This document shows, piece after piece, positions 36,001 through 64,000 of a stretch of 64,000 nt of DNA (the stretch's first letter is position 1; every line of letters begins with the position of its first letter). The position numbers and the translations under genes are program-made. The notes below the pieces were generated by a model. The model searched no databases and had not been told where the DNA came from. It was given only the letters and a program-made list of their open reading frames with translations. The stretch lies in assembly GCA_964057225.1 (NCBI GenBank), contig OZ059897.1, forward strand, positions 18,600,001 through 18,664,000, in the 5' to 3' direction. Source of the stretch: Auanema rhodensis. Taxonomy: Eukaryota; Animalia; Nematoda.

Positions 36001-37115
36001 CTACATTGAGAAACGCTTGATACAAAAATTAGTTATGATCGTTTGAAAAATGATGCATTAGTGTATGTTGAGTTTCCATGTACACTCAACATTGCTTCCA
36101 AAAACATTTTGACAAAAATTTTTTCGAAAAATTTCAAAATAGTTTAGCAAAAAGTAGATGTTTTTAGATTCCATTTTTCAGGGCAAAGACGATGGACAAT
36201 GTTATTCAACGAAAAAATTAATTCTTCAGGGTGAAAATCGAGGATATAAGTGTGAACTTATATCAGTTGATATCTCGGTGCATTTTTAAGCTAGCGCAAA
36301 TCTGATAACACAGATCGACGCAGCTTAAAAATCCGCATCGAATGCACTATACTACATTGAGAAACGCTTGATACAAAAATTAGTTATGATCGTTTGAAAA
36401 ATGATGCATTAGTGTATGTTGAGTTTCCATGTACACTCAACATTGCTTCCAAAAACATTTTGACAAAAATTTTTTCGAAAAATTTCAAAATAGTTTAGCA
36501 AAAAGTAGATGTTTTTAGATTCCATTTTTCAAGGCAAAGACGATGGACAATGTTATTCAACGAAAAAATTAATTCTTCAGGGTGAAAATCGAGGATATAA
36601 GTGTGAACTTATATCAGTTGATATCTCGGTGCATTTTTAAGCTAGCGCAAATCTGAAAACACAGATCGACGCAGCTTAAAAATCCGCATCGAATGCACTA
36701 TACTACATTGAGAAACGTTTGATACAAAAATTAGTTATGATCGTTTGAAAAATGATGCATTAGTGTATGTTGAGTTTCCATGTACACTCAACATTGCTTC
36801 CAAAAACATTTTGACAAAAATTTTTTCGAAAAATTTCAAAATAGTTTAGCAAAAAGTAGATGTTTTTAGATTCCATTTTTCAAGGCAAAGACGATGGACA
36901 ATGTTATTCAACGAAAAAATTAATTCTTCAGGGTGAAAATCGAGGATATAAGTGTGAACTTATATCAGTTGATATCTCGGTGCATTTTCAAGCTAGCGCA
37001 AATCTGATAACACAGATCGACGCAGCTTAAAAATCCGCATCGAATGCACTATACTACATTAAGAAACGCTTAATACAAAAATTAGTTATGATCGTTTGAA
37101 AAATGATGCATTAGT
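1..37115. repeat. Satellite array, 351-bp monomer (left arm; 105 full monomers plus 260 bp)
   Basis: GTAGATGTTTTTAGATTCC... recurs at 1, 352, 703 and so on. The register is exact every 7020 bp (7021, 14041, 21061, 28081, 35101). Monomers differ by only a few substitutions. Confidence 0.99.
37111..37115 (+). repeat. Target-site duplication TTAGT (left copy)
   Basis: The empty monomer reads GATGCA-TTAGT-GTATG. Here it reads GATGCA-TTAGT-[TGTTC...]. Confidence 0.95.
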
Positions 37116-37346
37116 TGTTCTGATCTAATCAGAAATTGAAGATAATTAATGAAGAACATGAATAATCTTTACCATTTTTGAATCAATATTATAAAACACG
37201 TGAAAGTTCACGTGAGAGTCATTTTTCATTGTTTTTGTTATTAACATTTTTTATTCTTCGAGTTAACACTTATAATAATCGGTCGTTGCCAATTATTTAT
37301 AATAAATAGTTATAATATATTTTGTGTTCTTTGTTTATTCAAGACA
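37116..37346 (+). repeat. 5' LTR (231 bp)
   Basis: Begins TGTTCTGATC and ends TCAAGACA. No difference from 45588-45818 found by base-by-base reading. Confidence 0.97.
37190..37196 (+). promoter_or_regulatory. Putative LTR TATA box (TATAAAA)
   Basis: Canonical TATAAAA in the U3-like part of the LTR. The AT-rich background lowers specificity. Confidence 0.5.
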
Positions 37347-37353
37347 TAAAAAG

Positions 37354-37395
37354 TGGTGCATCGGCCGGGAATCGAACCCGGGTCGCCCGCGTGGC
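37354..37395 (-). pseudogene. 3' half of mature tRNA-Gly(GCC) including CCA (extended primer-binding site), 42 nt
   Basis: The minus strand reads GCC AC GCGGG CGAC CCGGG TTCGATT CCCGG CCGATGC A CCA. This is anticodon, 3' anticodon stem, variable loop, T arm, acceptor strand, discriminator and CCA. No 5' half or D arm is present. Confidence 0.93.
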
Positions 37396-39783
37396 TTTGA
37401 CAATCAATTCTTCAATGACAGCTAAAGGCCATTTATGTCTTTTTACGTTATTCTCTTTACAAAGGACAATTTCACCAACTACAGGAGTTGCTTTTGAATA
37501 GCTTTTACTCAAACTTTTCTTATTTGATAGATTCCTTAGTTCTTCAAGGTATGTTTCACTCCAAGCTCTCCAAAACTGATTTATGTTCGAAGTACATGAG
37601 TTTAAATACTCAATTATATCGTTTTTATTATTTATTACGTTTTTTTCCTTGTTGTCGATGTTAAATTGACAGATTAAATTTTCTGGATGAAATATTTCTA
37701 AACTCTTTGGAGTAATAATGCTATCAAAATCGTTATTTATATATGAAATTGGTCTTGAATTGATGATATTTTCAATCTCTGATAATATGACCAGTAATTC
37801 GTTATATTTCAATTTTTTCCCTTCGATATTTTTTATCAAATATTTCTTTGTTAAACCAATTAATCTTTCATAAAAACCTCCTTTCCACGGGGAATACGGA
37901 GTGATCATTTTCCATTGTATTTTCTTATTTTCGAGAAAGTTTTGAAAAATTTTCTCGGTCTTACAGAATTGAGAACCATTATCTGATATAATTTTACTTG
38001 GTATTCTCTTTCGATCAAAAAATTTTCTCAGATTATTCATTAATTCCTTGCTAGAGCTATCATTAGCGACATCTAAGTATACTGCTCGTGTACATAGACA
38101 AGTAATTAGCATAATCCAAACTTTTTTATCAGCGTTGGTTTCATTTTTCACAATTAATGGGCCGGCGTAGTCAATGCCTATGTTTTCATATGGTTTAAAT
38201 TTTAAAACTCTTTCAACTGGTAATTGAGGAAAATCTGGATACTTATAAGGTCTGTTGTTAGCTTTTTTGCATTTCATACATTGGGAAATTGTTACATTTA
38301 TACAGCTTTTCAGTTTTATAATGAAAAATTGTTTACGTATTATCGCCATCATTGTTTCTCTGTTAGCATGAAGTGAAATTTCATGCATATACTTAATCAT
38401 GAGATTTGTGAAAAATTTTTTCCCATATAATAATACTGGATAACTGTTATTCAACTTATTTGCGTTACCTAATCGGCCTCGTACTCTTAAAATACCATCT
38501 TCATCTTGAACAATGTCTAATTTTTTAAATTTTTCTTTTTTCAATTCATTACAATTCTGCAATTGATGTGCTTTTATCATAATTTTTTCACAAATTATGT
38601 TTCTTTTCGAACTATCCGATTTTTCAAAATCTTCTATCAATTTCTTAAAACATCCTTTTGAGGTTTTTCTAAGTTTAGATATGAATATCAAAATATTTTT
38701 CACAATTCTTAATAATTTTGGATATGAAGATACTTTTTGAGCTAGGAAGTCCAAATCTTGGCTTTCCTTTGTTAAGTTCTCGTTTTTTATTAGAAAATTA
38801 ATGATTTTTGATTCTGCATTACTGTTTTCTTGTCCTACAACTTCTTTTAACGTTTTAATATTATTTTGTCGTTGAATTTCATCTTTGTACCATATTGGAC
38901 CTTTCAACCATTCTTTGTATTTTTCTTCCTGAGGTTCTAGACCTCTTGTTGGTACGTCAGCTGGATTTTTCTTGGTATTCACGTAAAAATATTCTATTTT
39001 TCCGTTTTCTTTTTCCAAGTCGTCTGTTAGATGTTTGATTTTCTCCAATCTGTTTCTAACATAGACTCTTTTTGTGGGACTTTTAAAAATCCAGCATAAA
39101 ACTACTTGGGAATCAGAAAATATTTTAATATTTTGTATGTTTATATTTATTTCTTTTATATTTTCTTTCATCATCTTAACACCTAAAAGAACTGCAGACA
39201 ATTCTTTCATTGGAATTGATCCTTCAATCATTGTGGAAGATTTTACGCAAAGAAGTTCAATTTCTTCAATAATTCCGTTTTTGACATATGCTAAATAGCC
39301 TGTTGCAGCAATTACGTCTCTAGATGCGTCTGTGAACAATAAATATTCCACATATTCATTACTTTTCAATATGGATCTATCTATTTCAATTTTTTGATTT
39401 TCGATTTTACTGTATATTTCTTTCCATTCTTCTATCAAATTTTCTGACAATTCATCATCCCATTTTATTTGACTTTCCCACAGTTTTTTGAGGAAAAGTC
39501 GTGATTTCAATGTTATAGGATGAGTTATACCTATTGGATCAAAAATCGCGTTTATGAAACTCAGAATATTTCTTTTCGTTGTCTGTTTTTCTTTCCATTC
39601 TGGAATTTTCACTTCCAATTTATCTGTTACTGTATTGTAATTCATTCCTAATATTTTAAAACTTGTTTCTTTTATTTTATCTTTTTCTGGGATTTTACTA
39701 TTTTCTGATCCACAGTTTGTATAAAATTCTCTTATATTCATTCCGATTTTTGAAAATAAATTTTTTACTTCTGCGTATAACTT
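37396..39783 (-). pseudogene. pol: Captured inverted pol fragment of a second BEL/Pao family (RT C-terminus/connection, RNase H, integrase truncated in its C-terminal domain)
   Basis: Core of ORF 37339..39741(-). Homology extends upstream of the ATG (KLYAEVKNLFSKIGMNIREFY vs host KLYEEIKNLFSKVNMNVREFY) and ends at ...EELIVK. Motifs: FTDAS, FSDSQ, NPAD, HHCC, DYAGP, SDNG, GGFYE. 796 codons with no stop. The last 18 aa of the listed ORF come from tRNA and LTR sequence. Confidence 0.92.
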
Positions 39784-39794
39784 GGTGCATCGGC
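39783..39794 (+). promoter_or_regulatory. Second (native) primer-binding site TGGTGCATCGGC, tRNA-Gly
   Basis: Identical to 37354-37365, followed by an AT-rich leader and the gag ATG 120 nt later. Confidence 0.9.
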
Positions 39795-39913
39795 AAAACT
39801 AAGTAAAACAAATAAATAAGTAAATAAGTGAATATATATATATTTATTTTATTGCTTATATAAAAAAAAAAAACCGAATTAATTAATATTATTGATAATC
39901 ATATAACTCAAAA

Positions 39914-41851
39914 ATGAGTTCAAAATCAGAAACAATCAGATTAAGTAAACAAGGATGCCAAAGCAGAATAAATGGTAATGCTCCTAAAAGAGAAGTTATG
40001 TTGAAAGTCATAGAAAAAGTTGATAACGGAACACACTTAAATACAAACGATATGGATGTAATAAGTGGATACATTGAAAATCTAAGAAATGTATGTGAGC
40101 ATATTTTAATTATGAAAGCTGATGAAGACTATGACATAGTCAAAGAAATAATTGAAAATTCTCATCTAGTGGAGGAAAATAACGAAATTAGAGAAGAGTT
40201 AAACGATTTGAAAAAAATCATAAATGATGAAAACCAAAATGATAGAAAATTGAAAATCAAGTTTAATATGATATATAAACAATTACTAGAAACTTTACCT
40301 GAATGTACTGATTTGAAAACCAAAACTCTGTTCAAATTTGAGCAGAATAAACAAATAGAAACTTCGTCAACAGTATCTTCAAGTTCTGAAACAGAAGAAT
40401 TAAGTGGTTACACTAAAAAACTAAGACGTAGTGCAGAAAGTTCAAAAAGTAATCAAAAACGTAATAACATAAATTGTAAACTTGAAAAAGTACTGGAAAG
40501 ATTAAACTTTTTAGAGGAAAAATTTGACTCAGAAAGCGATAGAGAAATTAAATATATAAATGATAAATCTTTAAAAAAGAGAATCAATAAATCAAATCAC
40601 GAAACATCAGACAGACATGAAAATAATCTATATATCCCAAGACCAAAAATAAAATTAACCACGTTTGATGGAAATATCACGGAATACCCAGAATTTATGA
40701 GTATTTTTGAATTACTCATTGATAGTAACCGTAATATGTCAGAAACCGAAAAATTTTATCATTTAAAATCGAGTTTGAGTGGTAATGCTGAACATTTATT
40801 GAAATCAATTACTTTAACAGCAGAAAATTATAAAAAAGCATTGTTTCTACTTAAGAAAACATATGATAAACCTCAAGAACGAAAGAAAGTATTAAAACAA
40901 AGACTAAGAGATTTGCCAAAAGCATATAAAAATGCAGTAAATATGCAAGAAATTTATAATGAAATTCAATCCATTATAACGGGATTAAGGGAGCATAGAG
41001 ACATTGACAATGAAGAAATAATTGAAACTATAATAGAAAAATTCCCAGAACATATACAAAGAGAAATCTTCAATATAGAAAGTAATGATGGCATAGAATT
41101 GAACATTGATGAAATCATAGAAATAATCGGTAACTCAATTAAATGCGAAAAAATGATACAAAATAAAAGAGAAAACTACAACAGCACGTTGAACTTTTTA
41201 ATGAATAACAGAAACTATCAAAATTATAATAGAAAACCTTATAACTATCAGAATGATCATGAAACAAGAAGAAAAAACGATAGATTTTCTAATGGTTTTC
41301 AAAATTTGAAATATAATAATGAGAATAATGATAGAAATAGACATCAAACACAGTATGCAAACAAATTTCAAGCAATAACAAGTAAAAACAATGATTCATT
41401 AGAAAACAAAAACTGTGTATTCTGTAATAGAAATAATCATAGCAGTTTAAATTGTAAAATTATCATGGATATCAGAGAAAAAAGGAACATCATCAAGCAA
41501 AATAGTCTTTGCTGGATTTGTTACAGTAAAAATCATAATTCTTTTCAATGTAATCTTGAAAGATGTCAAAATTGTATGGAACACCATAATTCAAAAATTT
41601 GCATGAAAAATCATTATAAAAATAACGCCAAGGACGTAATTAGCATAAATTCTCAATATGCTAATCACCCTACAAGCAACAATCACATGCAATCTCAATA
41701 TGCTAATGAGGTCGGTACTCCTCAAAATACAGTAAACGGAAGAAATAAAGCAGGAAATGAATATAAATGGAAACCCAATTTAACAGGAGGTAATAATGAG
41801 CCAATTGGACAAAATTTTCGATTGGAATCAAGAATAACAGAGAAAGGGTAA
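39914..41851 (+). CDS. gag: BEL/Pao Gag (645 aa)
   Basis: DUF1759-like capsid region (PKIKLTTFDGNITEYPEF...EKFYHLKSSLSGNA). Three CCHC knuckles: CVFC-H-C, CWIC-H-C, CQNC-H-C. Confidence 0.92.
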   Translation: MSSKSETIRLSKQGCQSRINGNAPKREVMLKVIEKVDNGTHLNTNDMDVISGYIENLRNVCEHILIMKADEDYDIVKEIIENSHLVEENNEIREELNDLKKIINDENQNDRKLKIKFNMIYKQLLETLPECTDLKTKTLFKFEQNKQIETSSTVSSSSETEELSGYTKKLRRSAESSKSNQKRNNINCKLEKVLERLNFLEEKFDSESDREIKYINDKSLKKRINKSNHETSDRHENNLYIPRPKIKLTTFDGNITEYPEFMSIFELLIDSNRNMSETEKFYHLKSSLSGNAEHLLKSITLTAENYKKALFLLKKTYDKPQERKKVLKQRLRDLPKAYKNAVNMQEIYNEIQSIITGLREHRDIDNEEIIETIIEKFPEHIQREIFNIESNDGIELNIDEIIEIIGNSIKCEKMIQNKRENYNSTLNFLMNNRNYQNYNRKPYNYQNDHETRRKNDRFSNGFQNLKYNNENNDRNRHQTQYANKFQAITSKNNDSLENKNCVFCNRNNHSSLNCKIIMDIREKRNIIKQNSLCWICYSKNHNSFQCNLERCQNCMEHHNSKICMKNHYKNNAKDVISINSQYANHPTSNNHMQSQYANEVGTPQNTVNGRNKAGNEYKWKPNLTGGNNEPIGQNFRLESRITEKG

Positions 41852-43932
41852 TAAGAGAAAAAGATGATAATCATTTTAATAACGAAATTGAAATTTTTAA
41901 TGAACCAAATACATTTTTTATATCTTTTTACAAAGCAAAAAGCTCTAATTTAGTAATTTTGTATGACTCTTGCTCAAATAAGTCATTTATCAAAAAACAA
42001 ACCGCAGAAAAGTTGAATTTACCAATATTAAGCAATAAAATGTTGCCAATAGGTACTATTGGTGATAAAGAAGAAATACTTAAATCAAAAGAAGTAATTT
42101 GGGGTATACCTGAGATAAAAGAAAATATAAATCTATTAGCTATTGAGAAAATAACAGATTTTGTGAATATGCCTTCAATACATGAGACGGAAATGAGAAA
42201 AATTGAGCAATATAGCAAGAAAAACATGAAATTAATTTTCGAAAAGGGCAATATTGAACCAGATATATTAATAGGAATGGATCAATTTTGGAAATTAGTT
42301 CCTAAAACATTTGAAAGCATTGATTTGAAAAACGGATTAGTAGTAATTCCAACAAAATTGAACCCTATCATATCAAAACATAAAACGTTTGATGAAATAT
42401 CAGATAGTGAAAACGATGAAACCGAATGTGGTTCAGATCTGAAATGTTTCCTAATAGGAAATAAACTGAAAGATGAGAATAAAAAACTGAATAAAGATGA
42501 AATGAGAAAATACGAAGATGATTTAGCTTGGAAACAATTTCACGAAAATGTAAAAATGAAAAATGGAAGAATTAATGTAAAATTTCCCATAAAACCAAAT
42601 ATTCAGTCAATTAACGATAATTATGGTAAAAGTATAAGGTTTACTAGGATACCTTTCGGTGTCAATAGTTCACCATTCTTATTAGCAGCAAGTATAATAT
42701 ATTTTTTAAATAAGGAAAAAAGAGATATTAATGAAGATATAATGAAAAATATTTATGTTGATAATATTATGCTGAAAGTAAGTAATGTCAATCAAAATTT
42801 AAAACTATATGAAGAAATAAAAAATCTTTTCTCAAAGGTTAATATGAATGTAAGAGAATTCTATAGTAATAACCCAAATATTATGCAAATGATCCCACAA
42901 AAAGATAAAATGAAGGAAGGAAGCATGAAAATCTTGGGAATGAACTATGAGAAAGAAAGTGATGAATTCATTATTGAATTCCCAAATTGGAAAGCTAATA
43001 ACCTAACAAGAAAAAATGTTTTGAGCTTCATTAATTCAGTTTTTGATCCTATAGGTATATCTCAACCTATCATGCTGAAAGCAAAACTATTTATGAAAAA
43101 ATTATGGGATTTAAAAAACGATTGGAACGATGAAATCACTGAAAAAGATTTGATTAATGAATGGTTAAATATAACCGAAAAACTAAGAAATAAGTTTTTA
43201 AAATTTCCAAGACAAATCCTAAGAAATCAAAATCCAGTAAAATTAGAATATTGTTTATTCACTGACGCATCTAAAGATGTGATAGCTGCAGTAGCATATA
43301 TAATTGAATACAATGATCAAAATAATATAATTAATATCCAATTTTTAAATTCTAAATCTTCAACAATGATAGAAGGTACAATTCCGATGAAAGAATTATC
43401 AGCAATGGTACTAGGATTTAAATTAATTAGAGAAAATTTTAAAGAAATGAACGTTAATATAAGAAATATTAAAATTTTCACTGATTCACAAGTCGTACTT
43501 CATTGGATATCAAAGAATCCTCAGAAAAAATTATATATTCGAAATAGAATAGAAAAAATAAACGAAATCAGTCAAGAAATGAAAGAAAAAGATAAAGTAA
43601 TAGAATATTTTTATGTTAAATCAGAAGCAAACCCTGCAGATATTCCTACAAGAGGAGCAGATATAGATGAAGCTAAATTTGAAATGTGGAAAAATGGTCC
43701 TTATTGGATGAAAGAGGAAAATTTATTTAAAGCCAATGTTATAACACAGCAAAACATTATTAATCCAGAAATTAGTAAAAGTAAAATCATAAATCTATTG
43801 ATAAATACAAAACGAAACAATTTATATGAAAATTTTGAAAGTTTAGCAGGAAAATATTCTTCCTTTTCCGAATATATGTCTATTATTAAAGTAATAGTTA
43901 TGTTTGCATGCAAACTAAGAAAAGAAAAATAG
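41800..43932 (+). pseudogene. pol: Pol, 5' part: aspartic protease, internally deleted RT, RNase H
   Basis: The frame opens at 41800; the listed 41959 start is only a TTG. Protease: ILYDSCSNKSFI...PDILIGMD. RT: RFTRIPFGVNSSPFLL and YVDN (42754-42765). RNase H: FTDAS, FTDSQ, NPAD. Ends in TAG at 43930-43932. Confidence 0.88.
41812..41818 (+). promoter_or_regulatory. Putative -1 ribosomal frameshift heptamer A AAT TTT
   Basis: Correctly phased X XXY YYZ in the gag frame, inside the gag/pol overlap (41800-41851). Pol is in the -1 frame. Confidence 0.7.
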
Positions 43933-45468
43933 ATGAATTCGAATAAAATCATGGAAGAACTCAGAGATGCAAAATCTGAAGGCATAAAAAATAAATTAAT
44001 CGAGAAATTGATAATAAAAATGCATCAAGAACAGAATATAAATAGCCTAGAAAAGAAAAAATATAAAAGTCTGGATATCATAAAGGATGAATATAATATT
44101 CTAAGAGTAAGAGGCAGAATGGGTAATGATAATAAGAGTATTGATGAATATCCGATACTATTATTTGGAAAAACAAATTATTCTAATTTATTTTTGAACT
44201 ATATGCATGGTATCATGTTACATCCTGCAAGAAACACATTCATATCAATGATAAGAAAGAATTTTTTTATAATAAAATTGAAGAATATAGTAAACACAAT
44301 CAATTCAAGATGCTTAAAATGTAAAAAATTAAATAACAGACCGTATAAATATCCAGATTTTCCACAGTTACCTATACATAGAATTAATAAATTCAAACCA
44401 TATGAAAATATTGGTGTTGATTTTGCTGGACCATTATACGTCAAAAAAGAAAATGAAACTAAAAAAGTGTGGATTATGCTTATAACATGTTTATGCACGA
44501 GAGCTATATATATTGATTTAGTTCATGATTGTACATCCAAAGAATTCATTTTGGTACTAAGAAAATTTTTTGCAAGAAAAAGAATACCGAAAATAATATA
44601 TAGTGATAACGGCTCACAATTTATTAAAGGAGAAAAAATTTTGAAAGAATTTTCGAGCAAGAACTTTATTCAATGGAAGTTCATAACTCCACATTCTCCC
44701 TGGAAAGGAGGTTTTTATGAAAAAATGATCGGAATCACTAAAAAATATCTAATGAAAAACTTAGATGTAAGAATAATAGAACTGAGAGAACTTGAAACAA
44801 TTTTAGCTGAGATAGAAACTGTAATAAATAACCGACCTCTCACTAATATTGAAACAGATTTTGATAAAATTATAACTCCAATGAGCTTAGAAATTTATCA
44901 TCCAAGTAATATATTACCATGTTATATGGGAAATGAAAATAAAACTAATTTAGAGAATAAAAGAGAAATTAAAGAATGGATGGAAATTTGCAATGAAAAA
45001 GTAGAAAAATTTTGGCTTGAATGGACAGGTCATTATCTTGAAGAATTAAGAGCTAATAATATTAAGTATAGAAATATGAAAAACTATTCAAAAAACATTC
45101 CGAAAGTAGGAGATATAGTATTGTGCGAAAAAATTGGCACCAAAAGAAATAAATGGCCTATGGTTCTTATAAAAGAATTGATCATATCTCCAGATAAACA
45201 GATAAGAACGGCCATTATAAAAAATTCTGAAGGAAATTTATTAAGAAAAAGTATAAAACAATTAATTCCTCTTGAAATTAACCAACAATACGATGAAAAT
45301 CATAAGGAAACGGAAGATGAAACCAAAGATGAAGAATCAGAACCAAAATCAGAAATTCACCAAAAACAACAAGATTGTATATCAAATACAATAATTCCAA
45401 GAGGTACTGAACAATGGAACCATCGCTTGAGACCAATAGCTAGAATAAACTATAAAGAATATTTATGA
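43933..45468 (+). CDS. pol: Pol, 3' part: integrase (same frame as the upstream pol)
   Basis: HHCC (H-x4-H...CLKC), catalytic D (GVDFAGP), D (SDNG), E (GGFYE). Pao C-terminal domain (KVGDIVL...KWP...IRTA...LIPLE) followed by an acidic tail. Confidence 0.9.
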   Translation: MNSNKIMEELRDAKSEGIKNKLIEKLIIKMHQEQNINSLEKKKYKSLDIIKDEYNILRVRGRMGNDNKSIDEYPILLFGKTNYSNLFLNYMHGIMLHPARNTFISMIRKNFFIIKLKNIVNTINSRCLKCKKLNNRPYKYPDFPQLPIHRINKFKPYENIGVDFAGPLYVKKENETKKVWIMLITCLCTRAIYIDLVHDCTSKEFILVLRKFFARKRIPKIIYSDNGSQFIKGEKILKEFSSKNFIQWKFITPHSPWKGGFYEKMIGITKKYLMKNLDVRIIELRELETILAEIETVINNRPLTNIETDFDKIITPMSLEIYHPSNILPCYMGNENKTNLENKREIKEWMEICNEKVEKFWLEWTGHYLEELRANNIKYRNMKNYSKNIPKVGDIVLCEKIGTKRNKWPMVLIKELIISPDKQIRTAIIKNSEGNLLRKSIKQLIPLEINQQYDENHKETEDETKDEESEPKSEIHQKQQDCISNTIIPRGTEQWNHRLRPIARINYKEYL

Positions 45469-45577
45469 AATTAATGTTTTGGTCGTTGGGAGCCATCACG
45501 TAACAAAAACGTGAAAAAGATGTAAAGAAACAAAATAATAATAAAAATCAAATTAAGGAATCAAATACGTCTTCTTT

Positions 45578-45587
45578 GAGGCGGGAA
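45578..45587 (+). promoter_or_regulatory. Polypurine tract GAGGCGGGAA
   Basis: Purine-rich run abutting the TG of the 3' LTR. Confidence 0.85.
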
Positions 45588-45818
45588 TGTTCTGATCTAA
45601 TCAGAAATTGAAGATAATTAATGAAGAACATGAATAATCTTTACCATTTTTGAATCAATATTATAAAACACGTGAAAGTTCACGTGAGAGTCATTTTTCA
45701 TTGTTTTTGTTATTAACATTTTTTATTCTTCGAGTTAACACTTATAATAATCGGTCGTTGCCAATTATTTATAATAAATAGTTATAATATATTTTGTGTT
45801 CTTTGTTTATTCAAGACA
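45588..45818 (+). repeat. 3' LTR (231 bp)
   Basis: Identical to the 5' LTR and immediately preceded by the PPT. Confidence 0.97.
45773..45778 (+). terminator. Putative polyadenylation signal AATAAA in the 3' LTR (copy at 37301-37306)
   Basis: AATAAA lies 40 nt before the LTR end and is followed by a GT/T-rich tract (TTTTGTGTTCTTTGTTT). Confidence 0.5.
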
Positions 45819-45823
45819 TTAGT
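45819..45823 (+). repeat. Target-site duplication TTAGT (right copy)
   Basis: [...AAGACA]-TTAGT-GTATG. Confidence 0.95.
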
Positions 45824-48800
45824 GTATGTTGAGTTTCCATGTACACTCAACATTGCTTCCAAAAACATTTTGACAAAAATTTTTTCGAAAAATTTCAAAA
45901 TAGTTTAGCAAAAAGTAGATGTTTTTAGATTCCATTTTTCAAGGCAAAGACGATGGACAATGTTATTCAACGAAAAAATTAATTCTTCAGGGTGAAAATC
46001 GAGGATATAAGTGTGAACTTATATCAGTTGATATCTCGGTGCATTTTTAAGCTAGCGCAAATCTGATAACACAGATCGACGCAGCTTAAAAATCCGCATC
46101 GAATGCACTATACTACATTAAGAAACGCTTAATACAAAAATTAGTTATGATCGTTTGAAAAATGATGCATTAGTGTATGTTGAGTTTCCATGTACACTCA
46201 ACATTGCTTCCAAAAACATTTTGACAAAAATTTTTTCGAAAAATTTCAAAATAGTTTAGCAAAAAGTAGATGTTTTTAGATTCCATTTTTCAAGGCAAAG
46301 ACGATGGACAATGTTATTCAACGAAAAAATTAATTCTTCAGGGTGAAAATCGAGGATATAAGTGTGAACTTATATCAGTTGATATCTCGGTGCATTTTTA
46401 AGCTAGCGCAAATCTGATAACACAGATCGACGCAGCTTAAAAATCCGCATCGAATGCACTATACTACATTGAGAAACGCTTGATACAAAAATTAGTTATG
46501 AGCGTTTGAAAAATGATGCATTAGTGTATGTTGAGTTTCCATGTACACTCAACATTGCTTCCAAAAACATTTTGACAAAAATTTTTTCGAAAAATTTCAA
46601 AATAGTTTAGCAAAAAGTAGATGTTTTTAGATTCCATTTTTCAAGGCAAAGACGATGGACAATGTTATTCAACGAAAAAATTAATTCTTCAGGGTGAAAA
46701 TCGAGGATATAAGTGTGAACTTATATCAGTTGATATCTCGGTGCATTTTTAAGCTAGCGCAAATCTGATAACACAGATCGACGCAGCTTAAAAATCCGCA
46801 TCGAATGCACTATACTACATTGAGAAACGCTTGATACAAAAATTAGTTATGAGCGTTTGAAAAATGATGCATTAGTGTATGTTGAGTTTCCATGTACACT
46901 CAACATTGCTTCCAAAAACATTTTGACAAAAATTTTTTCGAAAAATTTCAAAATAGTTTAGCAAAAAGTAGATGTTTTTAGATTCCATTTTTCAAGGCAA
47001 AGACGATGGACAATGTTATTCAACGAAAAAATTAATTCTTCAGGGTGAAAATCGAGGATATAAGTGTGAACTTATATCAGTTGATATCTCGGTGCATTTT
47101 CAAGCTAGCGCAAATCTGATAACACAGATCGACGCAGCTTAAAAATCCGCATCGAATGCACTATACTACATTAAGAAACGCTTAATACAAAAATTAGTTA
47201 TGATCGTTTGAAAAATGATGCATTAGTGTATGTTGAGTTTCCATGTACACTCAACATTGCTTCCAAAAACATTTTGACAAAAATTTTTTCGAAAAATTTC
47301 AAAATAGTTTAGCAAAAAGTAGATGTTTTTAGATTCCATTTTTCAAGGCAAAGACGATGGACAATGTTATTCAACGAAAAAATTAATTCTTCAGGGTGAA
47401 AATCGAGGATATAAGTGTGAACTTATATCAGTTGATATCTCGGTGCATTTTTAAGCTAGCGCAAATCTGATAACACAGATCGACGCAGCTTAAAAATCCG
47501 CATCGAATGCACTATACTACATTAAGAAACGCTTAATACAAAAATTAGTTATAATCGTTCGAAAAATGATGCATTAGTGTATGTTGAGTTTCCATGTACA
47601 CTCAACATTGCTTCCAAAAACATTTTGACAAAAATTTTTTCGAAAAATTTCAAAATAATTTAGCAAAAAGTAGAGGTTTTTAGATTCCATTTTTCAAGGC
47701 AAAGACGATGGACAATGTTATTCAACGAAAAAATTAATTCTTCAGGGTGAAAATCGAGGATATAAGTGTGAACTTATATCAGTTGATATCTCGGTGCATT
47801 TTTAAGCTAGCGCAAATCTGATAACACAGATCGACGCAGCTTAAAAATCCGCATCGAATGCACTATACTACATTAAGAAACGCTTGATACAAAAATTAGT
47901 TATGATCGTTTGAAAAATGATGCATTAGTGTATGTTGAGTTTCCATGTACACTCAACATTGCTTCCAAAAACATTTTGACAAAAATTTTTTCGAAAAATT
48001 TCAAAATAATTTAGCAAAAAGTAGATGTTTTTAGATTCCATTTTTTAAGGCAAAGACGATGGACAATGTTATTCAACGAAAAAATTAATTCTTCAGGGTG
48101 AAAATTGAGGATATAAGTGTGAACTTATATCAGTTGATATCTCGGTGCATTTTTAAGCTAGCGCAAATCTGATAACACAGATCGACGCAGCTTAAAAATC
48201 CGCATCGAATGCACTATACTACATTGAGAAACGCTTGATACAAAAATTAGTTATGATCGTTTGAAAAATGATGCATTAGTGTATGTTGAGTTTCCATGTA
48301 CACTCAACATTGCTTCCAAAAACATTTTGACAAAAATTTTTTCGAAAAATTTCAAAATAGTTTAGCAAAAAGTAGATGTTTTTAGATTCCATTTTTCAGG
48401 GCAAAGACGATGGACAATGTTATTCAACGAAAAAATTAATTCTTCAGGGTGAAAATCGAGGATATAAGTGTGAACTTATATCAGTTGATATCTCGGTGCA
48501 TTTTTAAGCTAGCGCAAATCTGATAACACAGATCGACGCAGCTTAAAAATCCGCATCGAATGCACTATACTACATTGAGAAACGCTTGATACAAAAATTA
48601 GTTATGATCGTTTGAAAAATGATGCATTAGTGTATGTTGAGTTTCCATGTACACTCAACATTGCTTCCAAAAACATTTTGACAAAAATTTTTTCGAAAAA
48701 TTTCAAAATAGTTTAGCAAAAAGTAGATGTTTTTAGATTCCATTTTTCAGGGCAAAGACGATGGACAATGTTATTCAACGAAAAAATTAATTCTTCAGGG

Positions 48801-51800
48801 TGAAAATCGAGGATATAAGTGTGAACTTATATCAGTTGATATCTCGGTGCATTTTTAAGCTAGCGCAAATCTGATAACACAGATCGACGCAGCTTAAAAA
48901 TCCGCATCGAATGCACTATACTACATTGAGAAACGCTTGATACAAAAATTAGTTATGATCGTTTGAAAAATGATGCATTAGTGTATGTTGAGTTTCCATG
49001 TACACTCAACATTGCTTCCAAAAACATTTTGACAAAAATTTTTTCGAAAAATTTCAAAATAGTTTAGCAAAAAGTAGATGTTTTTAGATTCCATTTTTCA
49101 AGGCAAAGACGATGGACAATGTTATTCAACGAAAAAATTAATTCTTCAGGGTGAAAATCGAGGATATAAGTGTGAACTTATATCAGTTGATATCTCGGTG
49201 CATTTTTAAGCTAGCGCAAATCTGAAAACACAGATCGACGCAGCTTAAAAATCCGCATCGAATGCACTATACTACATTGAGAAACGTTTGATACAAAAAT
49301 TAGTTATGATCGTTTGAAAAATGATGCATTAGTGTATGTTGAGTTTCCATGTACACTCAACATTGCTTCCAAAAACATTTTGACAAAAATTTTTTCGAAA
49401 AATTTCAAAATAGTTTAGCAAAAAGTAGATGTTTTTAGATTCCATTTTTCAAGGCAAAGACGATGGACAATGTTATTCAACGAAAAAATTAATTCTTCAG
49501 GGTGAAAATCGAGGATATAAGTGTGAACTTATATCAGTTGATATCTCGGTGCATTTTCAAGCTAGCGCAAATCTGATAACACAGATCGACGCAGCTTAAA
49601 AATCCGCATCGAATGCACTATACTACATTAAGAAACGCTTAATACAAAAATTAGTTATGATCGTTTGAAAAATGATGCATTAGTGTATGTTGAGTTTCCA
49701 TGTACACTCAACATTGCTTCCAAAAACATTTTGACAAAAATTTTTTCGAAAAATTTCAAAATAGTTTAGCAAAAAGTAGATGTTTTTAGATTCCATTTTT
49801 CAAGGCAAAGACGATGGACAATGTTATTCAACGAAAAAATTAATTCTTCAGGGTGAAAATCGAGGATATAAGTGTGAACTTATATCAGTTGATATCTCGG
49901 TGCATTTTTAAGCTAGCGCAAATCTGATAACACAGATCGACGCAGCTTAAAAATCCGCATCGAATGCACTATACTACATTAAGAAACGCTTAATACAAAA
50001 ATTAGTTATGATCGTTTGAAAAATGATGCATTAGTGTATGTTGAGTTTCCATGTACACTCAACATTGCTTCCAAAAACATTTTGACAAAAATTTTTTCGA
50101 AAAATTTCAAAATAGTTTAGCAAAAAGTAGATGTTTTTAGATTTCATTTTTCAAGGCAAAGACGATGGACAATGTTATTCAACGAAAAAATTAATTCTTC
50201 AGGGTGAAAATCGAGGATATAAGTGTGAACTTATATCAGTTGATATCTCGGTGCATTTTTAAGCTAGCGCAAATCTGATAACACAGATCGACGCAGCTTA
50301 AAAATCCGCATCGAATGCACTATACTACATTAAGAAACGCTTAATACAAAAATTAGTTATGATCGTTTGAAAAATGATGCATTAGTGTATGTTGAGTTTC
50401 CATGTACACTCAACATTGCTTCCAAAAACATTTTGACAAAAATTTTTTCGAAAAATTTCAAAATAGTTTAGCAAAAAGTAGATGTTTTTAGATTTCATTT
50501 TTCAAGGCAAAGACGATGGACAATGTTATTCAACGAAAAAATTAATTCTTCAGGGTGAAAATCGAGGATATAAGTGTGAACTTATATCAGTTGATATCTC
50601 GGTGCATTTTTAAGCTAGCGCAAATCTGATAACACAGATCGACGCAGCTTAAAAATCCGCATCGAATGCACTATACTACATTGAGAAACGCTTGATACAA
50701 AAATTAGTTATGATCGTTTGAAAAATGATGCATTAGTGTATGTTGAGTTTCCATGTACACTCAACATTGCTTCCAAAAACATTTTGACAAAAATTTTTTC
50801 GAAAAATTTCAAAATAGTTTAGCAAAAAGTAGATGTTTTTAGATTCCATTTTTCAAGGCAAAGACGATGGACAATGTTATTCAACGAAAAAATTAATTCT
50901 TCAGGGTGAAAATCGAGGATATAAGTGTGAACTTATATCAGTTGATATCTCGGTGCATTTTCAAGCTAGCGCAAATCTGATAACACAGATCGACGCAGCT
51001 TAAAAATCCGCATCGAATGCACTATACTACATTAAGAAACGCTTAATACAAAAATTAGTTATGATCGTTTGAAAAATGATGCATTAGTGTATGTTGAGTT
51101 TCCATGTACACTCAACATTGCTTCCAAAAACATTTTGACAAAAATTTTTTCGAAAAATTTCAAAATAGTTTAGCAAAAAGTAGATGTTTTTAGATTCCAT
51201 TTTTCAAGGCAAAGACGATGGACAATGTTATTCAACGAAAAAATTAATTCTTCAGGGTGAAAATCGAGGATATAAGTGTGAACTTATATCAGTTGATATC
51301 TCGGTGCATTTTTAAGCTAGCGCAAATCTGATAACACAGATCGACGCAGCTTAAAAATCCGCATCGAATGCACTATACTACATTAAGAAACGCTTAATAC
51401 AAAAATTAGTTATGATCGTTTGAAAAATGATGCATTAGTGTATGTTGAGTTTCCATGTACACTCAACATTGCTTCCAAAAACATTTTGACAAAAATTTTT
51501 TCGAAAAATTTCAAAATAGTTTAGCAAAAAGTAGATGTTTTTAGATTTCATTTTTCAAGGCAAAGACGATGGACAATGTTATTCAACGAAAAAATTAATT
51601 CTTCAGGGTGAAAATCGAGGATATAAGTGTGAACTTATATCAGTTGATATCTCGGTGCATTTTTAAGCTAGCGCAAATCTGATAACACAGATCGACGCAG
51701 CTTAAAAATCCGCATCGAATGCACTATACTACATTGAGAAACGCTTGATACAAAAATTAGTTATGATCGTTTGAAAAATGATGCATTAGTGTATGTTGAG

Positions 51801-54800
51801 TTTCCATGTACACTCAACATTGCTTCCAAAAACATTTTGACAAAAATTTTTTCGAAAAATTTCAAAATAGTTTAGCAAAAAGTAGATGTTTTTAGATTCC
51901 ATTTTTCAAGGCAAAGACGATGGACAATGTTATTCAACGAAAAAATTAATTCTTCAGGGTGAAAATCGAGGATATAAGTGTGAACTTATATCAGTTGATA
52001 TCTCGGTGCATTTTCAAGCTAGCGCAAATCTGATAACACAGATCGACGCAGCTTAAAAATCCGCATCGAATGCACTATACTACATTAAGAAACGCTTAAT
52101 ACAAAAATTAGTTATGATCGTTTGAAAAATGATGCATTAGTGTATGTTGAGTTTCCATGTACACTCAACATTGCTTCCAAAAACATTTTGACAAAAATTT
52201 TTTCGAAAAATTTCAAAATAGTTTAGCAAAAAGTAGATGTTTTTAGATTCCATTTTTCAAGGCAAAGACGATGGACAATGTTATTCAACGAAAAAATTAA
52301 TTCTTCAGGGTGAAAATCGAGGATATAAGTGTGAACTTATATCAGTTGATATCTCGGTGCATTTTTAAGCTAGCGCAAATCTGATAACACAGATCGACGC
52401 AGCTTAAAAATCCGCATCGAATGCACTATACTACATTAAGAAACGCTTAATACAAAAATTAGTTATAATCGTTCGAAAAATGATGCATTAGTGTATGTTG
52501 AGTTTCCATGTACACTCAACATTGCTTCCAAAAACATTTTGACAAAAATTTTTTCGAAAAATTTCAAAATAATTTAGCAAAAAGTAGATGTTTTTAGATT
52601 CCATTTTTCAAGGCAAAGACGATGGACAATGTTATTCAACGAAAAAATTAATTCTTCAGGGTGAAAATCGAGGATATAAGTGTGAACTTATATCAGTTGA
52701 TATCTCGGTGCATTTTTAAGCTAGCGCAAATCTGATAACACAGATCGACGCAGCTTAAAAATCCGCATCGAATGCACTATACTACATTAAGAAACGCTTG
52801 ATACAAAAATTAGTTATGATCGTTTGAAAAATGATGCATTAGTGTATGTTGAGTTTCCATGTACACTCAACATTGCTTCCAAAAACATTTTGACAAAAAT
52901 TTTTTCGAAAAATTTCAGAATAATTTAGCAAAAAGTAGATGTTTTTAGATTCCATTTTTTAAGGCAAAGACGATGGACAATGTTATTCAACGAAAAAATT
53001 AATTCTTCAGGGTGAAAATTGAGGATATAAGTGTGAACTTATATCAGTTGATATCTCGGTGCATTTTTAAGCTAGCGCAAATTTGATAACACAGATCGAC
53101 GCAGCTTAAAAATCCGCATCGAATGCACTATACTACATTGAGAAACGCTTGATACAAAAATTAGTTATGATCATTTGAAAAATGATGCATTAGTGTATGT
53201 TGAGTTTCCATGTACACTCAACATTGCTTCCAAAAACATTTTGACAAAAATTTTTTCGAAAAATTTCAAAATAGTTTAGCAAAAAGTAGATGTTTTTAGA
53301 TTCCATTTTTCAGGGCAAAGACGATGGACAATGTTATTCAACGAAAAAATTAATTCTTCAGGGTGAAAATCGAGGATATAAGTGTGAACTTATATCAGTT
53401 GATATCTCGGTGCATTTTTAAGCTAGCGCAAATCTGATAACACAGATCGACGCAGCTTAAAAATCCGCATCGAATGCACTATACTACATTGAGAAACGCT
53501 TAATACAAAAATTAGTTATGATCGTTTGAAAAATGATGCATTAGTGTATGTTGAGTTTCCATGTACACTCAACATTGCTTCCAAAAACATTTTGACAAAA
53601 ATTTTTTCGAAAAATTTCAAAATAGTTTAGCAAAAAGTAGATGTTTTTAGATTCCATTTTTCAAGGCAAAGACGATGGACAATGTTATTCAACGAAAAAA
53701 TTAATTCTTCAGGGTGAAAATCGAGGATATAAGTGTGAACTTATATCAGTTGATATCTCGGTGCATTTTTAAGCTAGCGCAAATCTGATAACACAGATCG
53801 ACGCAGCTTAAAAATCCGCATCGAATGCACTATACTACATTAAGAAACGCGTGATACAAAAATTAGTTATGATCGTTTGAAAAATGATGCATTAGTGTAT
53901 GTTGAGTTTCCATGTACACTCAACATTGCTTCCAAAAACATTTTGACAAAAATTTTTTCGAAAAATTTCAAAATAATTTAGCAAAAAGTAGATGTTTTTA
54001 GATTCCATTTTTTAAGGCAAAGACGATGGACAATGTTATTCAACGAAAAAATTAATTCTTCAGGGTGAAAATTGAGGATATAAGTGTGAACTTATATCAG
54101 TTGATATCTCGGTGCATTTTTAAGCTAGCGCAAATCTGATAACACAGATCGACGCAGCTTAAAAATCCGCATCGAATGCACTATACTACATTGAGAAACG
54201 CTTGATACAAAAATTAGTTATGATCGTTTGAAAAATGATGCATTAGTGTATGTTGAGTTTCCATGTACACTCAACATTGCTTCCAAAAACATTTTGACAA
54301 AAATTTTTTCGAAAAATTTCATAATAGTTTAGCAAAAAGTAGATGTTTTTAGATTCCATTTTTCAGGGCAAAGACGATGGACAATGTTATTCAACGAAAA
54401 AATTAATTCTTCAGGGTGAAAATCGAGGATATAAGTGTGAACTTATATCAGTTGATATCTCGGTGCATTTTTAAGCTAGCGCAAATCTGATAACACAGAT
54501 CGACGCAGCTTAAAAATCCGCATCGAATGCACTATACTACATTGAGAAACGCTTGATACAAAAATTAGTTATGATCGTTTGAAAAATGATGCATTAGTGT
54601 ATGTTGAGTTTCCATGTACACTCAACATTGCTTCCAAAAACATTTTGACAAAAATTTTTTCGAAAAATTTCAAAATAGTTTAGCAAAAAGTAGATGTTTT
54701 TAGATTCCATTTTTCAAGGCAAAGACGATGGACAATGTTATTCAACGAAAAAATTAATTCTTCAGGGTGAAAATCGAGGATATAAGTGTGAACTTATATC

Positions 54801-63800: not shown

Positions 63801-64000
63801 AATAGTTTAGCAAAAAGTAGATGTTTTTAGATTCCATTTTTCAAGGCAAAGACGATGGACAATGTTATTCAACGAAAAAATTAATTCTTCAGGGTGAAAA
63901 TCGAGGATATAAGTGTGAACTTATATCAGTTGATATCTCGGTGCATTTTTAAGCTAGCGCAAATCTGATAACACAGATCGACGCAGTTTAAAAATCCGCA
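45819..64000. repeat. Satellite array, 351-bp monomer (right arm; ~52 monomers, same orientation)
   Basis: The array resumes exactly where it was interrupted. Monomer start 48021 minus 8708 (element plus TSD) equals 1+351x112, so the register is preserved. Confidence 0.99.

Follow-up and report, generated by a model that had tools for sequence, protein, structure and literature searches.

How does a retrotransposon come to carry, directly behind its 5′ LTR, a copy of half a tRNA, a pol fragment in reverse orientation and a second primer-binding site (PBS)? Judged from its sequence, the element that raises this question (37116-45818) is a defective BEL/Pao hybrid whose parents are two related families, here called A and B. 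The rest of the window (the whole 64-kb stretch of DNA that was analysed), around the element, is a 351-bp satellite. The order of parts is LTR, 7-nt spacer, 42-nt complement of tRNA-Gly(GCC), TTT, 2,384 nt of antisense pol, 12-nt PBS, leader and gag (Table 1). A first-pass annotation of this DNA had named the LTR, spacer, tRNA half, inverted pol, second PBS, leader and gag, and all lie where it placed them. Its insert was, however, slightly too long, at 2,388 bp: 2,387 nt (37396-39782) separate the tRNA copy from the second PBS (PBS2), of which 2,384 nt match the donor.

Integration and coding content of the element

The element has the hallmarks of BEL/Pao: two TG...CA LTRs, a PBS, a polypurine tract and a short target duplication. 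Its Pfam order (PF03564, PF05585, PF05380, PF17921, PF00665, PF18701) is that of a BEL-type gag followed by PR-RT-RH-IN. The LTRs are identical at 231 of 231 positions, and in the satellite the left flank stops at unit position 260 and the right flank begins at 256. The identical LTRs and the single 5-bp target duplication indicate that the whole structure integrated as one piece. Together with a CCA-bearing tRNA copy behind the LTR, they bear out the earlier proposal that it originated in reverse transcription.

This copy is non-autonomous, with a gap in RT at 42635-42640 and a stop in pol at 43930-43932, and RT is truncated in both pol pieces (the insert and the sense pol). It is a young, broken retrotransposon copy, likely of an invertebrate germ-line element, and the insertion is apparently polymorphic. 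Nothing in the sequence of this single broken insertion suggests spread, expression or function. The nearest protein in a search that gave 15 matches (437-1393 aa long) was from a nematode and 56% identical, so that no near-identical donor protein was among them.

Table 1. Parts of the element and its target site, with positions in the window.
Feature	Position	Strand	Evidence
Target-site duplication, left copy, TTAGT	37111..37115	+	Sequence, inside 351-bp satellite
5′ LTR, family B, 231 nt, TG...CA	37116..37346	+	Identical to 3′ LTR
U5-PBS spacer TAAAAAG, family B	37347..37353	+	Sequence; LTR contigs traverse it (X1, X3; ends 37352, 37364)
DNA copy of 3′ half of mature tRNA-Gly(GCC), CCA end to G34, 42 nt	37354..37395	-	tRNA-gene contigs
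TTT, matching neither tRNA nor adjoining donor flank	37396..37398	+	Donor loose end at 37399 (X9 only)
Family-A pol fragment in antisense (RT end, RNase H and most of integrase), 2,384 nt	37399..39782	-	Donor contigs, Pfam
PBS2, 12 nt, assigned to family A through its link to the leader	39783..39794	+	Sequence; junction contigs (X1, X3)
Family-A leader	39795..39913	+	Colinear with gag in X3 record 23
Family-A gag	39914..41851	+	PF03564
Family-A protease and RT start, overlapping frame	41800..42640	+	PF05585; A contigs
A/B switch, 6-nt microhomology TAAGGT	42635..42640	+	Contigs; sequence
Family-B 3′ pol, stop at 43930-43932	42635..45468	+	B contigs
Polypurine tract, family B	45578..45587	+	Sequence
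3′ LTR, family B	45588..45818	+	Sequence
Target-site duplication, right copy, TTAGT	45819..45823	+	Sequence

Parent families and junctions

Families A and B are about 65% identical by contig comparison. PBS2, the leader, gag, 5′ pol and the insert are family A, whereas 3′ pol and the LTRs are family B. Contigs of both parents exist separately in all three runs (3/3), each matching one part of the element. Family-A contigs align up to 42640 in X1 and X5, and X9 has a joint at 42640. One of them (X1 record 3) covers 39862-42640, continues for 606 other letters and then matches 39782-39706 reversed, that is, A gag joined in sense to the pol of the insert; the same joint was found in X9. Family-B contigs are 99.6% identical to the element, carry other sequence upstream of 42635 in 3/3 runs and continue from pol into the start of the LTR (records 4, 10 and 21).

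The insert had been described as pol from another family. It is in fact pol from the same family as the gag downstream of it, and differs only from the LTRs and the 3′ pol (65.6% identity to the window's own 3′ pol). The nearly identical donor that had been predicted does exist, as contigs 99.3-99.5% identical to the insert. These continue as pol at both ends and hold neither the tRNA half nor a PBS, the presence of which in the donor the first-pass annotation had named as a finding that would count against it. The insert contains no stop codon and matches PF05380, PF17921, PF00665 and PF18701. All of it corresponds to A sequence left unused by the minus strand of the hybrid, beginning 606 nt past the switch. 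Differences from the contigs were mostly synonymous in the pol frame, both in the insert (10/14, 0.30 expected, p=0.002) and in B pol (8/9, p=0.0002, two sites left out), which indicates that the source RNAs of both had recently been coding and that neither part has decayed much. Compared with X5, the gag part had 9 differences in 2,779 nt and the insert 16 in 2,384 (p=0.11), a difference that does not show whether gag and insert came from different A copies.

At the A/B switch, at least six shared letters would occur by chance with a probability of 0.6%. The switch is out of register, with a net loss from RT of 444 nt relative to A and 483 nt relative to B, and leaves a gap of about 140 residues against P0001. 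Among the matches listed, contigs bridged this junction in 0/3 runs. Joints from the A 3′ flank to LTR B, or from LTR B to the A leader, were likewise absent among the matches listed, in a comparison that skipped the repeat at 39797-39858; family A may thus have an LTR different from that of B.

The tRNA copy ends at tRNA position 34, assigned by eye from the anticodon stem-loop. ARAGORN names a near-identical stretch tRNA-Gly(gcc), and it made zero tRNA calls in the 64-kb window. Contigs of tRNA genes align to 37357-37395 and then enter the 5′ half of the tRNA exactly at 37395/37396, which shows that the match is not due to chance. They lack TGG, with loose ends at 37357 in 3/4 runs (X2, X3 and X9); the CCA of the copy is therefore not gene-encoded. 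Contigs of the LTR family (B) depart from the tRNA after 11 nt (37364; X1 and X3). As the PBS match of family B is thus 11 nt, 31 of the 42 nt are extra, and the primer-tRNA sequence directly after the 5′ LTR exceeds the element's own PBS (42 vs 11 nt). The first 11 nt of the copy could also be family B's inherited PBS. A different LTR-like end joins TGG and the tRNA complement at 37349 in X2 and X3. An Rfam tmRNA match on the T-arm was below threshold (17.4 bits vs 47) and was rejected as reflecting tRNA-like ends.

The TTT that follows may be untemplated, a remnant of an A-tail, or copied from a TTTGAC in the donor 30 nt onward, with a 27-nt slip on GAC. The hexamer would occur within 30 nt by chance with a probability of about 1-2%. 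The slip reading depends on one contig end in one run (X9).

PBS2 and the first PBS have exactly 12 nt in common, and both start with TGG. In half-tRNA priming of the copia/Ty5 type the PBS pairs with the anticodon arm and not with the CCA end, so this mode was ruled out. That PBS2 starts at TGG without the spacer had been taken as significant, but the comparison was with the spacer of the wrong family (B). The donor pol match stops at 39782 and has 0 letters in common with PBS2, which excludes homology at the right junction on the pol side only. The end of the insert has no homology of note to the LTR-B end and spacer.

The junctions were to be confirmed in independent data, and this succeeded for one of the two. 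Contigs bridge the right junction (39782/39783) in 2/5 runs, X1 and X3, with at least 31 letters on each side; these runs belong to two different studies, and X1 may be the source of the window. In X2 the right side comprised only 14 aligned letters, and the junction was not seen among the matches listed for X5 or X9 contigs. Its depth was 8-12, and it was seen in three of the five runs, fully bridged in two. The left junction (37395/37396) was bridged in 0/4 runs among the contig matches listed. An 819-codon open frame spans both junctions and reaches a stop in the LTR after 19 extra codons; as a candidate gene it was set aside as a by-product, no start signal having been shown.

Routes to the antisense insert

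The structure probably arose when plus-strand synthesis read through the tRNA primer and jumped onto a co-packaged family-A RNA, either in the cycle that made the hybrid or in an earlier one. Minus-strand synthesis would have begun on B RNA, moved to A RNA at 42635-42640 and stopped at the 5′ edge of A's PBS, the start of the primed RNA once RNase H had removed R-U5. Plus strong-stop DNA would have passed A58 and halted at G34, where the anticodon loop was likely nicked, before jumping to the 3′ end of a piece of A RNA in the integrase tail and copying 2.4 kb backwards. A 27-nt slip on the GAC repeat could have followed the jump, and synthesis would have run off the A-RNA piece at 39782. As the plus-strand end no longer had a PBS, a blunt join to the minus strand at family A's PBS would have replaced the normal second transfer, leaving two PBSs. 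Plus-strand synthesis begins long before the minus strand arrives at the PBS, so timing favours the plus strand. According to a passage of PMC3187697, template switches without homology occur at a rate at least 1000-fold below that of homologous ones, which counts against this route. Parts of PMC3035444 describe RTs, including that of Tf1, that clamp onto acceptors with 2-nt overhangs, as HIV-1 RT does also after untemplated addition. An additional RNA break is required by the 606 nt that separate the switch from the insert, three odd joins are needed, and the left and A/B junctions rest on the assembly of the window; these points also count against the proposed route.

That all steps took place inside one A/B particle can be suggested only tentatively. 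Another variant of the same explanation, which we consider rather doubtful, has two steps. Capture in a particle containing only A RNA would first have produced an A element that had an LTR of its own as well as the tRNA half, antisense pol and PBS2; a B RNA would then have supplied LTRs and 3′ pol in a later cycle. Consistent with this, the junction contigs of X1 and X3 run unbroken across PBS2 and leader without branching towards a native A 5′ end, and the X3 contig and the window disagree at positions 39984 and 40368. The depths in X1 (junction 11.9, gag 16.3, pol 25.2, as depth and not copy number) resemble one element with pol present twice, and the different LTR-like end on TGG and the tRNA complement would also fit. 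However, the window element plus a 5′-truncated A copy explains the same contigs; two of the three A-part differences in X1 were located, both in the last 515 nt (42126 and 42466), as from merging copies; and the position of the insert in the part of A replaced by B would be a coincidence.

It had been argued that antisense cargo necessarily implies a sense RNA copied in plus-strand synthesis. This is too strong, as a minus strand copying family-A minus DNA yields the same product. The strand that made a join cannot be read from finished DNA. Along such a route, a finished minus strand would run off the PBS edge, take a stalled family-A minus DNA as template from its 3′ end, copy 2.4 kb of it and finally move onto the tRNA-extended end of plus strong-stop DNA. 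The final sequence is identical, a break in A RNA near 39782 accounts for both the stall and the free DNA end, and the right junction shares 0 letters with donor pol. Even so we regard it as unlikely: the template would be left mid-sequence without homology, an available 12-bp PBS match would be passed up, and the short slipped patch beside the tRNA copy seems easier to reconcile with unstable synthesis at its start than with the close of a long run. Host end joining (NHEJ or polymerase theta) of abortive double-stranded products before integration, from an LTR with its tRNA copy, a pol piece and a PBS-to-LTR piece, is similarly improbable. The joins are blunt or near-blunt, free ends at G34 and the PBS edge are those that RT intermediates provide, and an insert templated at most 30 nt from the break is like the short patches, templated near the break, that polymerase theta leaves. 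Yet three DNA pieces would have to be joined in the correct order with both outer ends integrase-competent, and random orientation would be expected where the reverse-transcription route predicts antisense.

Rearrangement after insertion, in which break repair exchanged the 5′ interior of a B provirus for A DNA in rearranged form and part of a tRNA gene, is very unlikely. Satellite arrays, such as that in which the element sits, recombine frequently, the A/B switch shows microhomology (6 nt), and 8 nt are common to tRNA genes and the B PBS. Nevertheless, the PBS extension, the anticodon and the PBS edge, at which three of the breakpoints lie, are all landmarks of reverse transcription, the flanking satellite is in register apart from the 5-bp duplication, and no cryptic tRNA-binding site was found in the insert (longest match 7 nt, shuffles 6-8). 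We give still less weight to misassembly or an amplification chimera at the left or A/B junction, where bridging contigs were absent among the matches listed, even though whole-genome amplification generates inversions. The right junction is bridged at the identical base in two studies, the letters shared at the left and A/B junctions (8-11, 3 and 6 nt) are far below what assemblers join on, and contig cleaning likely drops low-depth links beside tRNA genes and B pol (147 vs 12). Scarcely probable is a pre-ligated primer, also raised by the first-pass annotation, in which a piece of A RNA was ligated to the tRNA 3′ half before priming and RT copied one RNA. RNA ligation precedes the formation of U6/L1 chimeras. 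On the other hand, RNase H ends have the wrong chemistry for RtcB-type ligation, and as TTT is not the donor's next sequence, a tail or slip would still be required. The break does lie precisely within the anticodon loop, the place at which halves are cut, and tRNA-Gly-GCC halves are present in C. elegans sperm, according to sections of PMC13136342.

Precedents and related copies

Each step, tRNA read-through, template-switch hybrids and inversions, has precedent; their combination was not reported in the literature that we searched. Sun et al. (2001), Colicelli and Goff (1986) and Dunn et al. (1992) reportedly found inserts of tRNA plus foreign sequence in retroviral vectors. There too, a primer-tRNA copy is joined to the sequence of another RNA beside the LTR, and a misplaced PBS copy flanks cell-derived cargo. 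Those cases came from single-cycle cell culture with short cargo, whereas here a natural chromosomal copy carries kilobase cargo from its co-parent. Passages of PMC4997597 describe 'patch repair' by a third template.

In HIV-1, Hardy et al. (2025) found 44 proviruses in which 7-54 nt of tRNA sequence had been inserted behind the PBS (main text of PMC12657518). As here, the LTR and PBS are followed by a copy of the primer tRNA past the normal stop, and a jump leads to an integrated, defective provirus. The likeness covers the first step only. The HIV-1 jumps go forward on the minus strand and delete sequence, and the word 'inversion' is absent from that main text; here 2.4 kb was copied from a template of opposite polarity, with return at a second PBS, so that the PBS is duplicated with no loss there, in a BEL/Pao element. 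Inter-element recombinants of LTR retrotransposons (Drost and Sanchez 2019; Sabot and Schulman 2007) arise in reverse transcription, and those between distant families are said to be rare, in parts of PMC6894440 and PMC1950507. They share with our element two parents, matching outer LTRs and one target duplication; no tRNA copy, inversion or second PBS is described in those parts, and here the out-of-register switch deletes much of RT. Antisense extra ORFs in plant LTR elements (Retand and others) likewise are open frames within an LTR element, but, from sections of PMC7264820 and PMC11963269, are kept across many copies, whereas the present frame is a recent pol fragment 5′ of gag, at low depth and in some samples.

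To our knowledge, BEL/Pao replication has received little biochemical study. If the proposed route is correct, plus-strand synthesis in BEL/Pao can copy the primer tRNA beyond A58 to the anticodon, RNAs of families about 65% identical are likely co-packaged and recombine, and a failed second strand transfer can nonetheless finish as an integrase-made insertion. If transcribed, the insert would give a 2.4-kb RNA antisense to family A. Genomes could be scanned for the signature of LTR, over-long PBS, cargo and second PBS. The Ty3 PBS is not inherited from the tRNA (a passage of PMC5371799), so LTR elements cannot all be expected to copy their primer.

An insert-free sibling (LTR-spacer-PBS-AAAACTAAG) had been predicted; the matches listed contain none, and the LTR's own family has a different leader. 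Other CCA-bearing copies of tRNA-Gly numbered 0 in viral contigs and three in metagenome contigs. Two of the three represent one palindromic element without LTR or long ORF (ORFs checked in L002 only), the third looks like a tRNA-like gene, and we accepted neither as a sibling. A scan for bacterial promoters gave no signal above shuffles.

Long tRNA-Gly matches occur in C. elegans Cer elements, and a literature search on Cer7 returned nothing relevant. It is improbable that BEL/Pao elements of this lineage are routinely primed by anticodon-nicked tRNA-Gly, with run-off at G34, end-to-end jumps onto any co-packaged RNA, fixation of long PBSs, LTR-driven antisense cargo and trans-silencing loci. 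Were this route a recurring one, such loci would be founded against the captured family, and long tRNA copies would become fixed as PBSs; the LTR-like end at 37349 may represent a second type of LTR with such a long match.

Element anatomy and setting

The window is a 351-bp satellite with a single interruption, an LTR element whose gag and pol belong to the BEL/Pao group (Pfam) and whose closest protein found, of nematode origin, is 56% identical, making a nematode host likely. Integration as a single piece is directly evident: TTAGT is duplicated, one copy on each side, and the satellite is otherwise in register. The two LTRs are identical in sequence, which bounds divergence at 1.3% (95%), and pol on the + strand is broken twice. 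The element is real, young and defective, and is an inter-family recombinant. The order of parts described in the first-pass annotation was borne out by the sequence, while the length between the two PBSs, given there as 2,388 nt, measured 2,387 nt.

Parts of the element and its surroundings (window coordinates)
Feature	Position	Description
Satellite	1-37115; 45819-64000	351-bp repeat
LTR element	37116-45818	
5' LTR	37116-37346	231 nt
Spacer		TAAAAAG
tRNA complement		42 nt, complementary to the tRNA 3' half
Left junction	~37395-37399	TTT
Insert	37399-39782	antisense pol without stops
Right junction	39782/39783	
Second PBS	from 39783	12 nt; leader and gag follow
Gag-pol overlap	41782-41820	39-nt stretch
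A/B junction	42635-42640	TAAGGT
Gap in RT	~42635	
Stop in pol	43930-43932	
3' LTR		231 nt

The satellite is very uniform (the copies shown are 98-100% identical, with nothing else there) and is possibly centromeric or otherwise recently homogenised. LTR depth relative to internal family-A sequence (family A is defined below) ranged from ~30 (run X9) to ~4,000 (X2), which may reflect copy-number change or library bias. The letter at 37186 is the same in both LTRs and unlike the contigs in four of four runs.

Parentage and age of the parts

Thirteen runs from three studies were listed, nine of them holding half or more of the window's words. Five were compared, as contigs only: X1, X2, X3 and X9 in a first comparison (32 of 306 pieces and 24 of 79 loose ends listed), and X1, X5 and X9 in a second, on family parentage (24 of 77 pieces and 18 of 49 loose ends listed). 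X1 is perhaps the source of the window; X3 is from a separate study.

The parentage of each part is read directly from contigs. A 3,462-nt X1 contig matched 39862-42640 (+) with three differences, continued through 606 letters absent from the window and then entered the insert in sense from 39782. An identical gag-to-insert-pol joint was present in X9, and X5 contigs extended past both points. Thus gag, 5' pol and the insert all come from one family (A), which likely has its own LTR. Contigs of a second family (B; 6,097 nt in X1 and X5, two in X9) matched 42635-45587 at 99.6% and entered the LTR, but carried other sequence upstream of 42635. The two families overlap there by six letters, an overlap that a random junction reaches in 0.6% of cases, and their pol sequences share 65.6% DNA identity and 50-56% protein identity. 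The insert had been described as foreign pol; it is native to the adjoining gag, and it is the LTRs that are foreign. An insert-free sibling had also been predicted, and none was seen among the contig matches listed. Over the gag-pol overlap A and B are alike at 32 of 39 letters, with flanks unaligned at the threshold used; judged by sequence, a conserved frameshift signal is likely here. The insert departs from its donor contigs mostly at 39043-39736, where 700 nt hold 12 of the 16 listed sites, compared to 4 over the initial 1,600 nt; this hints that family-A copies may themselves be mosaics.

Counting positions at which the contigs of each of the three runs depart from the window, and excluding the stop site plus one position that X9 lacks, most changes were synonymous in the pol frame: 10 of 14 for the insert and 8 of 9 for B pol (~0.3 expected in each case). 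Most of the differences are therefore ones that separate coding lineages, and there has been hardly any decay of the captured piece. Given the low depth of the junction and its presence in three of five runs (X2 with 14 letters only), this is a young insertion that is likely polymorphic. No multiplication of the insertion was seen in the contig data of the five runs.

The tRNA half and the junctions

Contigs of tRNA genes matched 37357-37395 and then entered the tRNA 5' half exactly where the window departs. At 37357, rows from three of four runs showed letters other than TGG, and the tRNA genes therefore do not encode the CCA; the copy of a CCA-bearing tRNA is thus seen directly. Read by eye, the loose letters complete the anticodon stem-loop and place the last copied base at G34 of a GCC anticodon, and ARAGORN called a near-identical stretch tRNA-Gly(gcc). 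A58 of the tRNA was copied as A; stops in primer tRNA are set by A58 and U54 methylation (PMC8599865). Contigs with this LTR (X1, X3) depart from the tRNA after 11 nt into a different leader, so that 31 of the 42 nt are extra.

At 37349, X2 and X3 contigs carried a different, related LTR-like end followed by TGG and a tRNA-Gly complement, and mixed consensus rows at 37395 (X1, X2, X3) suggest a contig tracking the tRNA ~9 nt further, then an A-rich stretch. These two ends, between which no link was found, possibly belong to a third family in which a long PBS (~51 nt) is the natural state, or to an A-only precursor at its 5' end. A scan of metagenome contigs for CCA-bearing tRNA-Gly copies returned a ~170-bp palindromic, MITE-like element (L002:1905-2070, also in L001) with such 3' ends as both arms and no LTR or long ORF seen nearby; it too appears to have been copied from mature tRNA, and has no relation to the window.

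The right junction was spanned by contigs from X1 (39706-39873) and X3 (39680-40400), with just 14 aligned letters beyond it in X2 and none seen in X5 or X9 among the matches listed. For the left junction, no spanning contig was among the matches listed for the five runs, and in all five the donor contig continued into its own flank at 37399; cleaning of contigs beside high-depth tRNA nodes would account for the missing contigs. The donor match stops at 39782 with no letters common to donor and PBS (donor pol side compared). On the left, TTT is unlike both the tRNA and the donor's next letters. A second copy of the insert's opening hexamer, TTTGAC, lies 30 nt deeper in the donor flank (X9 only; chance 1-2%). 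RT may have started there and then slipped by 27 nt at GAC; alternatively, the TTT may be an A-tail remnant or have been added without a template. No cryptic tRNA-binding site was found in the insert.

Routes to the present structure

We propose that the minus strand would have started with B RNA as its template, crossed over at the microhomology to A RNA and stopped at A's PBS. The plus strand, begun much earlier, would have copied the primer as far as G34, then transferred to a remaining fragment of A RNA and copied that as well, its end then being joined bluntly to that of the minus strand. Capture by the plus strand, in one particle or in two steps, is moderately probable. The insert lies wholly within the part of A unused by the minus strand, which fits a single A/B particle, a version we hold tentatively. 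Capture in an earlier cycle with A alone, with the LTRs swapped later, would yield an identical product and is equally consistent with the X1 depths and with the contigs that run unbroken from junction to leader; we regard it as a lesser possibility. The first-pass annotation held that copying a sense RNA necessarily gave antisense DNA on the + strand, which is too strong, as the finished product does not reveal the strand of synthesis; a minus-strand route is unlikely, and host end joining is equally so. Rearrangement of the DNA after insertion is improbable, misassembly is very improbable, and a pre-ligated primer is the least credible of these routes.

The combination of LTR, tRNA half, antisense cargo and second PBS in a retrotransposon was not found in the literature covered, which included few subscription papers. 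Older vector cases of tRNA plus foreign inserts were reportedly described by Sun (2001), Colicelli and Goff (1986) and Dunn (1992). Hardy et al. (PMC12657518) describe 44 HIV-1 proviruses in which the PBS is followed by 7-54 nt of primer tRNA, caused by delayed second-strand transfer; the present element would work alike but does not belong to the HIV deletion type, and their figure alignments may hold closer cases. Third-template patches and host-RNA capture are covered in a review (PMC4997597), proviral segments have been found inverted (PMC9278108), and RTs, Tf1's included, clamp on 2-nt overhangs in vitro (PMC3035444). Distant LTR families are known to recombine, an event described as rare (PMC6894440; PMC1950507), the Ty3 PBS is not inherited from tRNA (PMC5371799), and C. 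elegans sperm contains tRNA-Gly-GCC halves (PMC13136342). That a nicked-primer route recurs and gives rise to antisense silencing loci is unlikely; the single hint of it comes from the X2 and X3 loose ends, where a second type of LTR has a long tRNA match.
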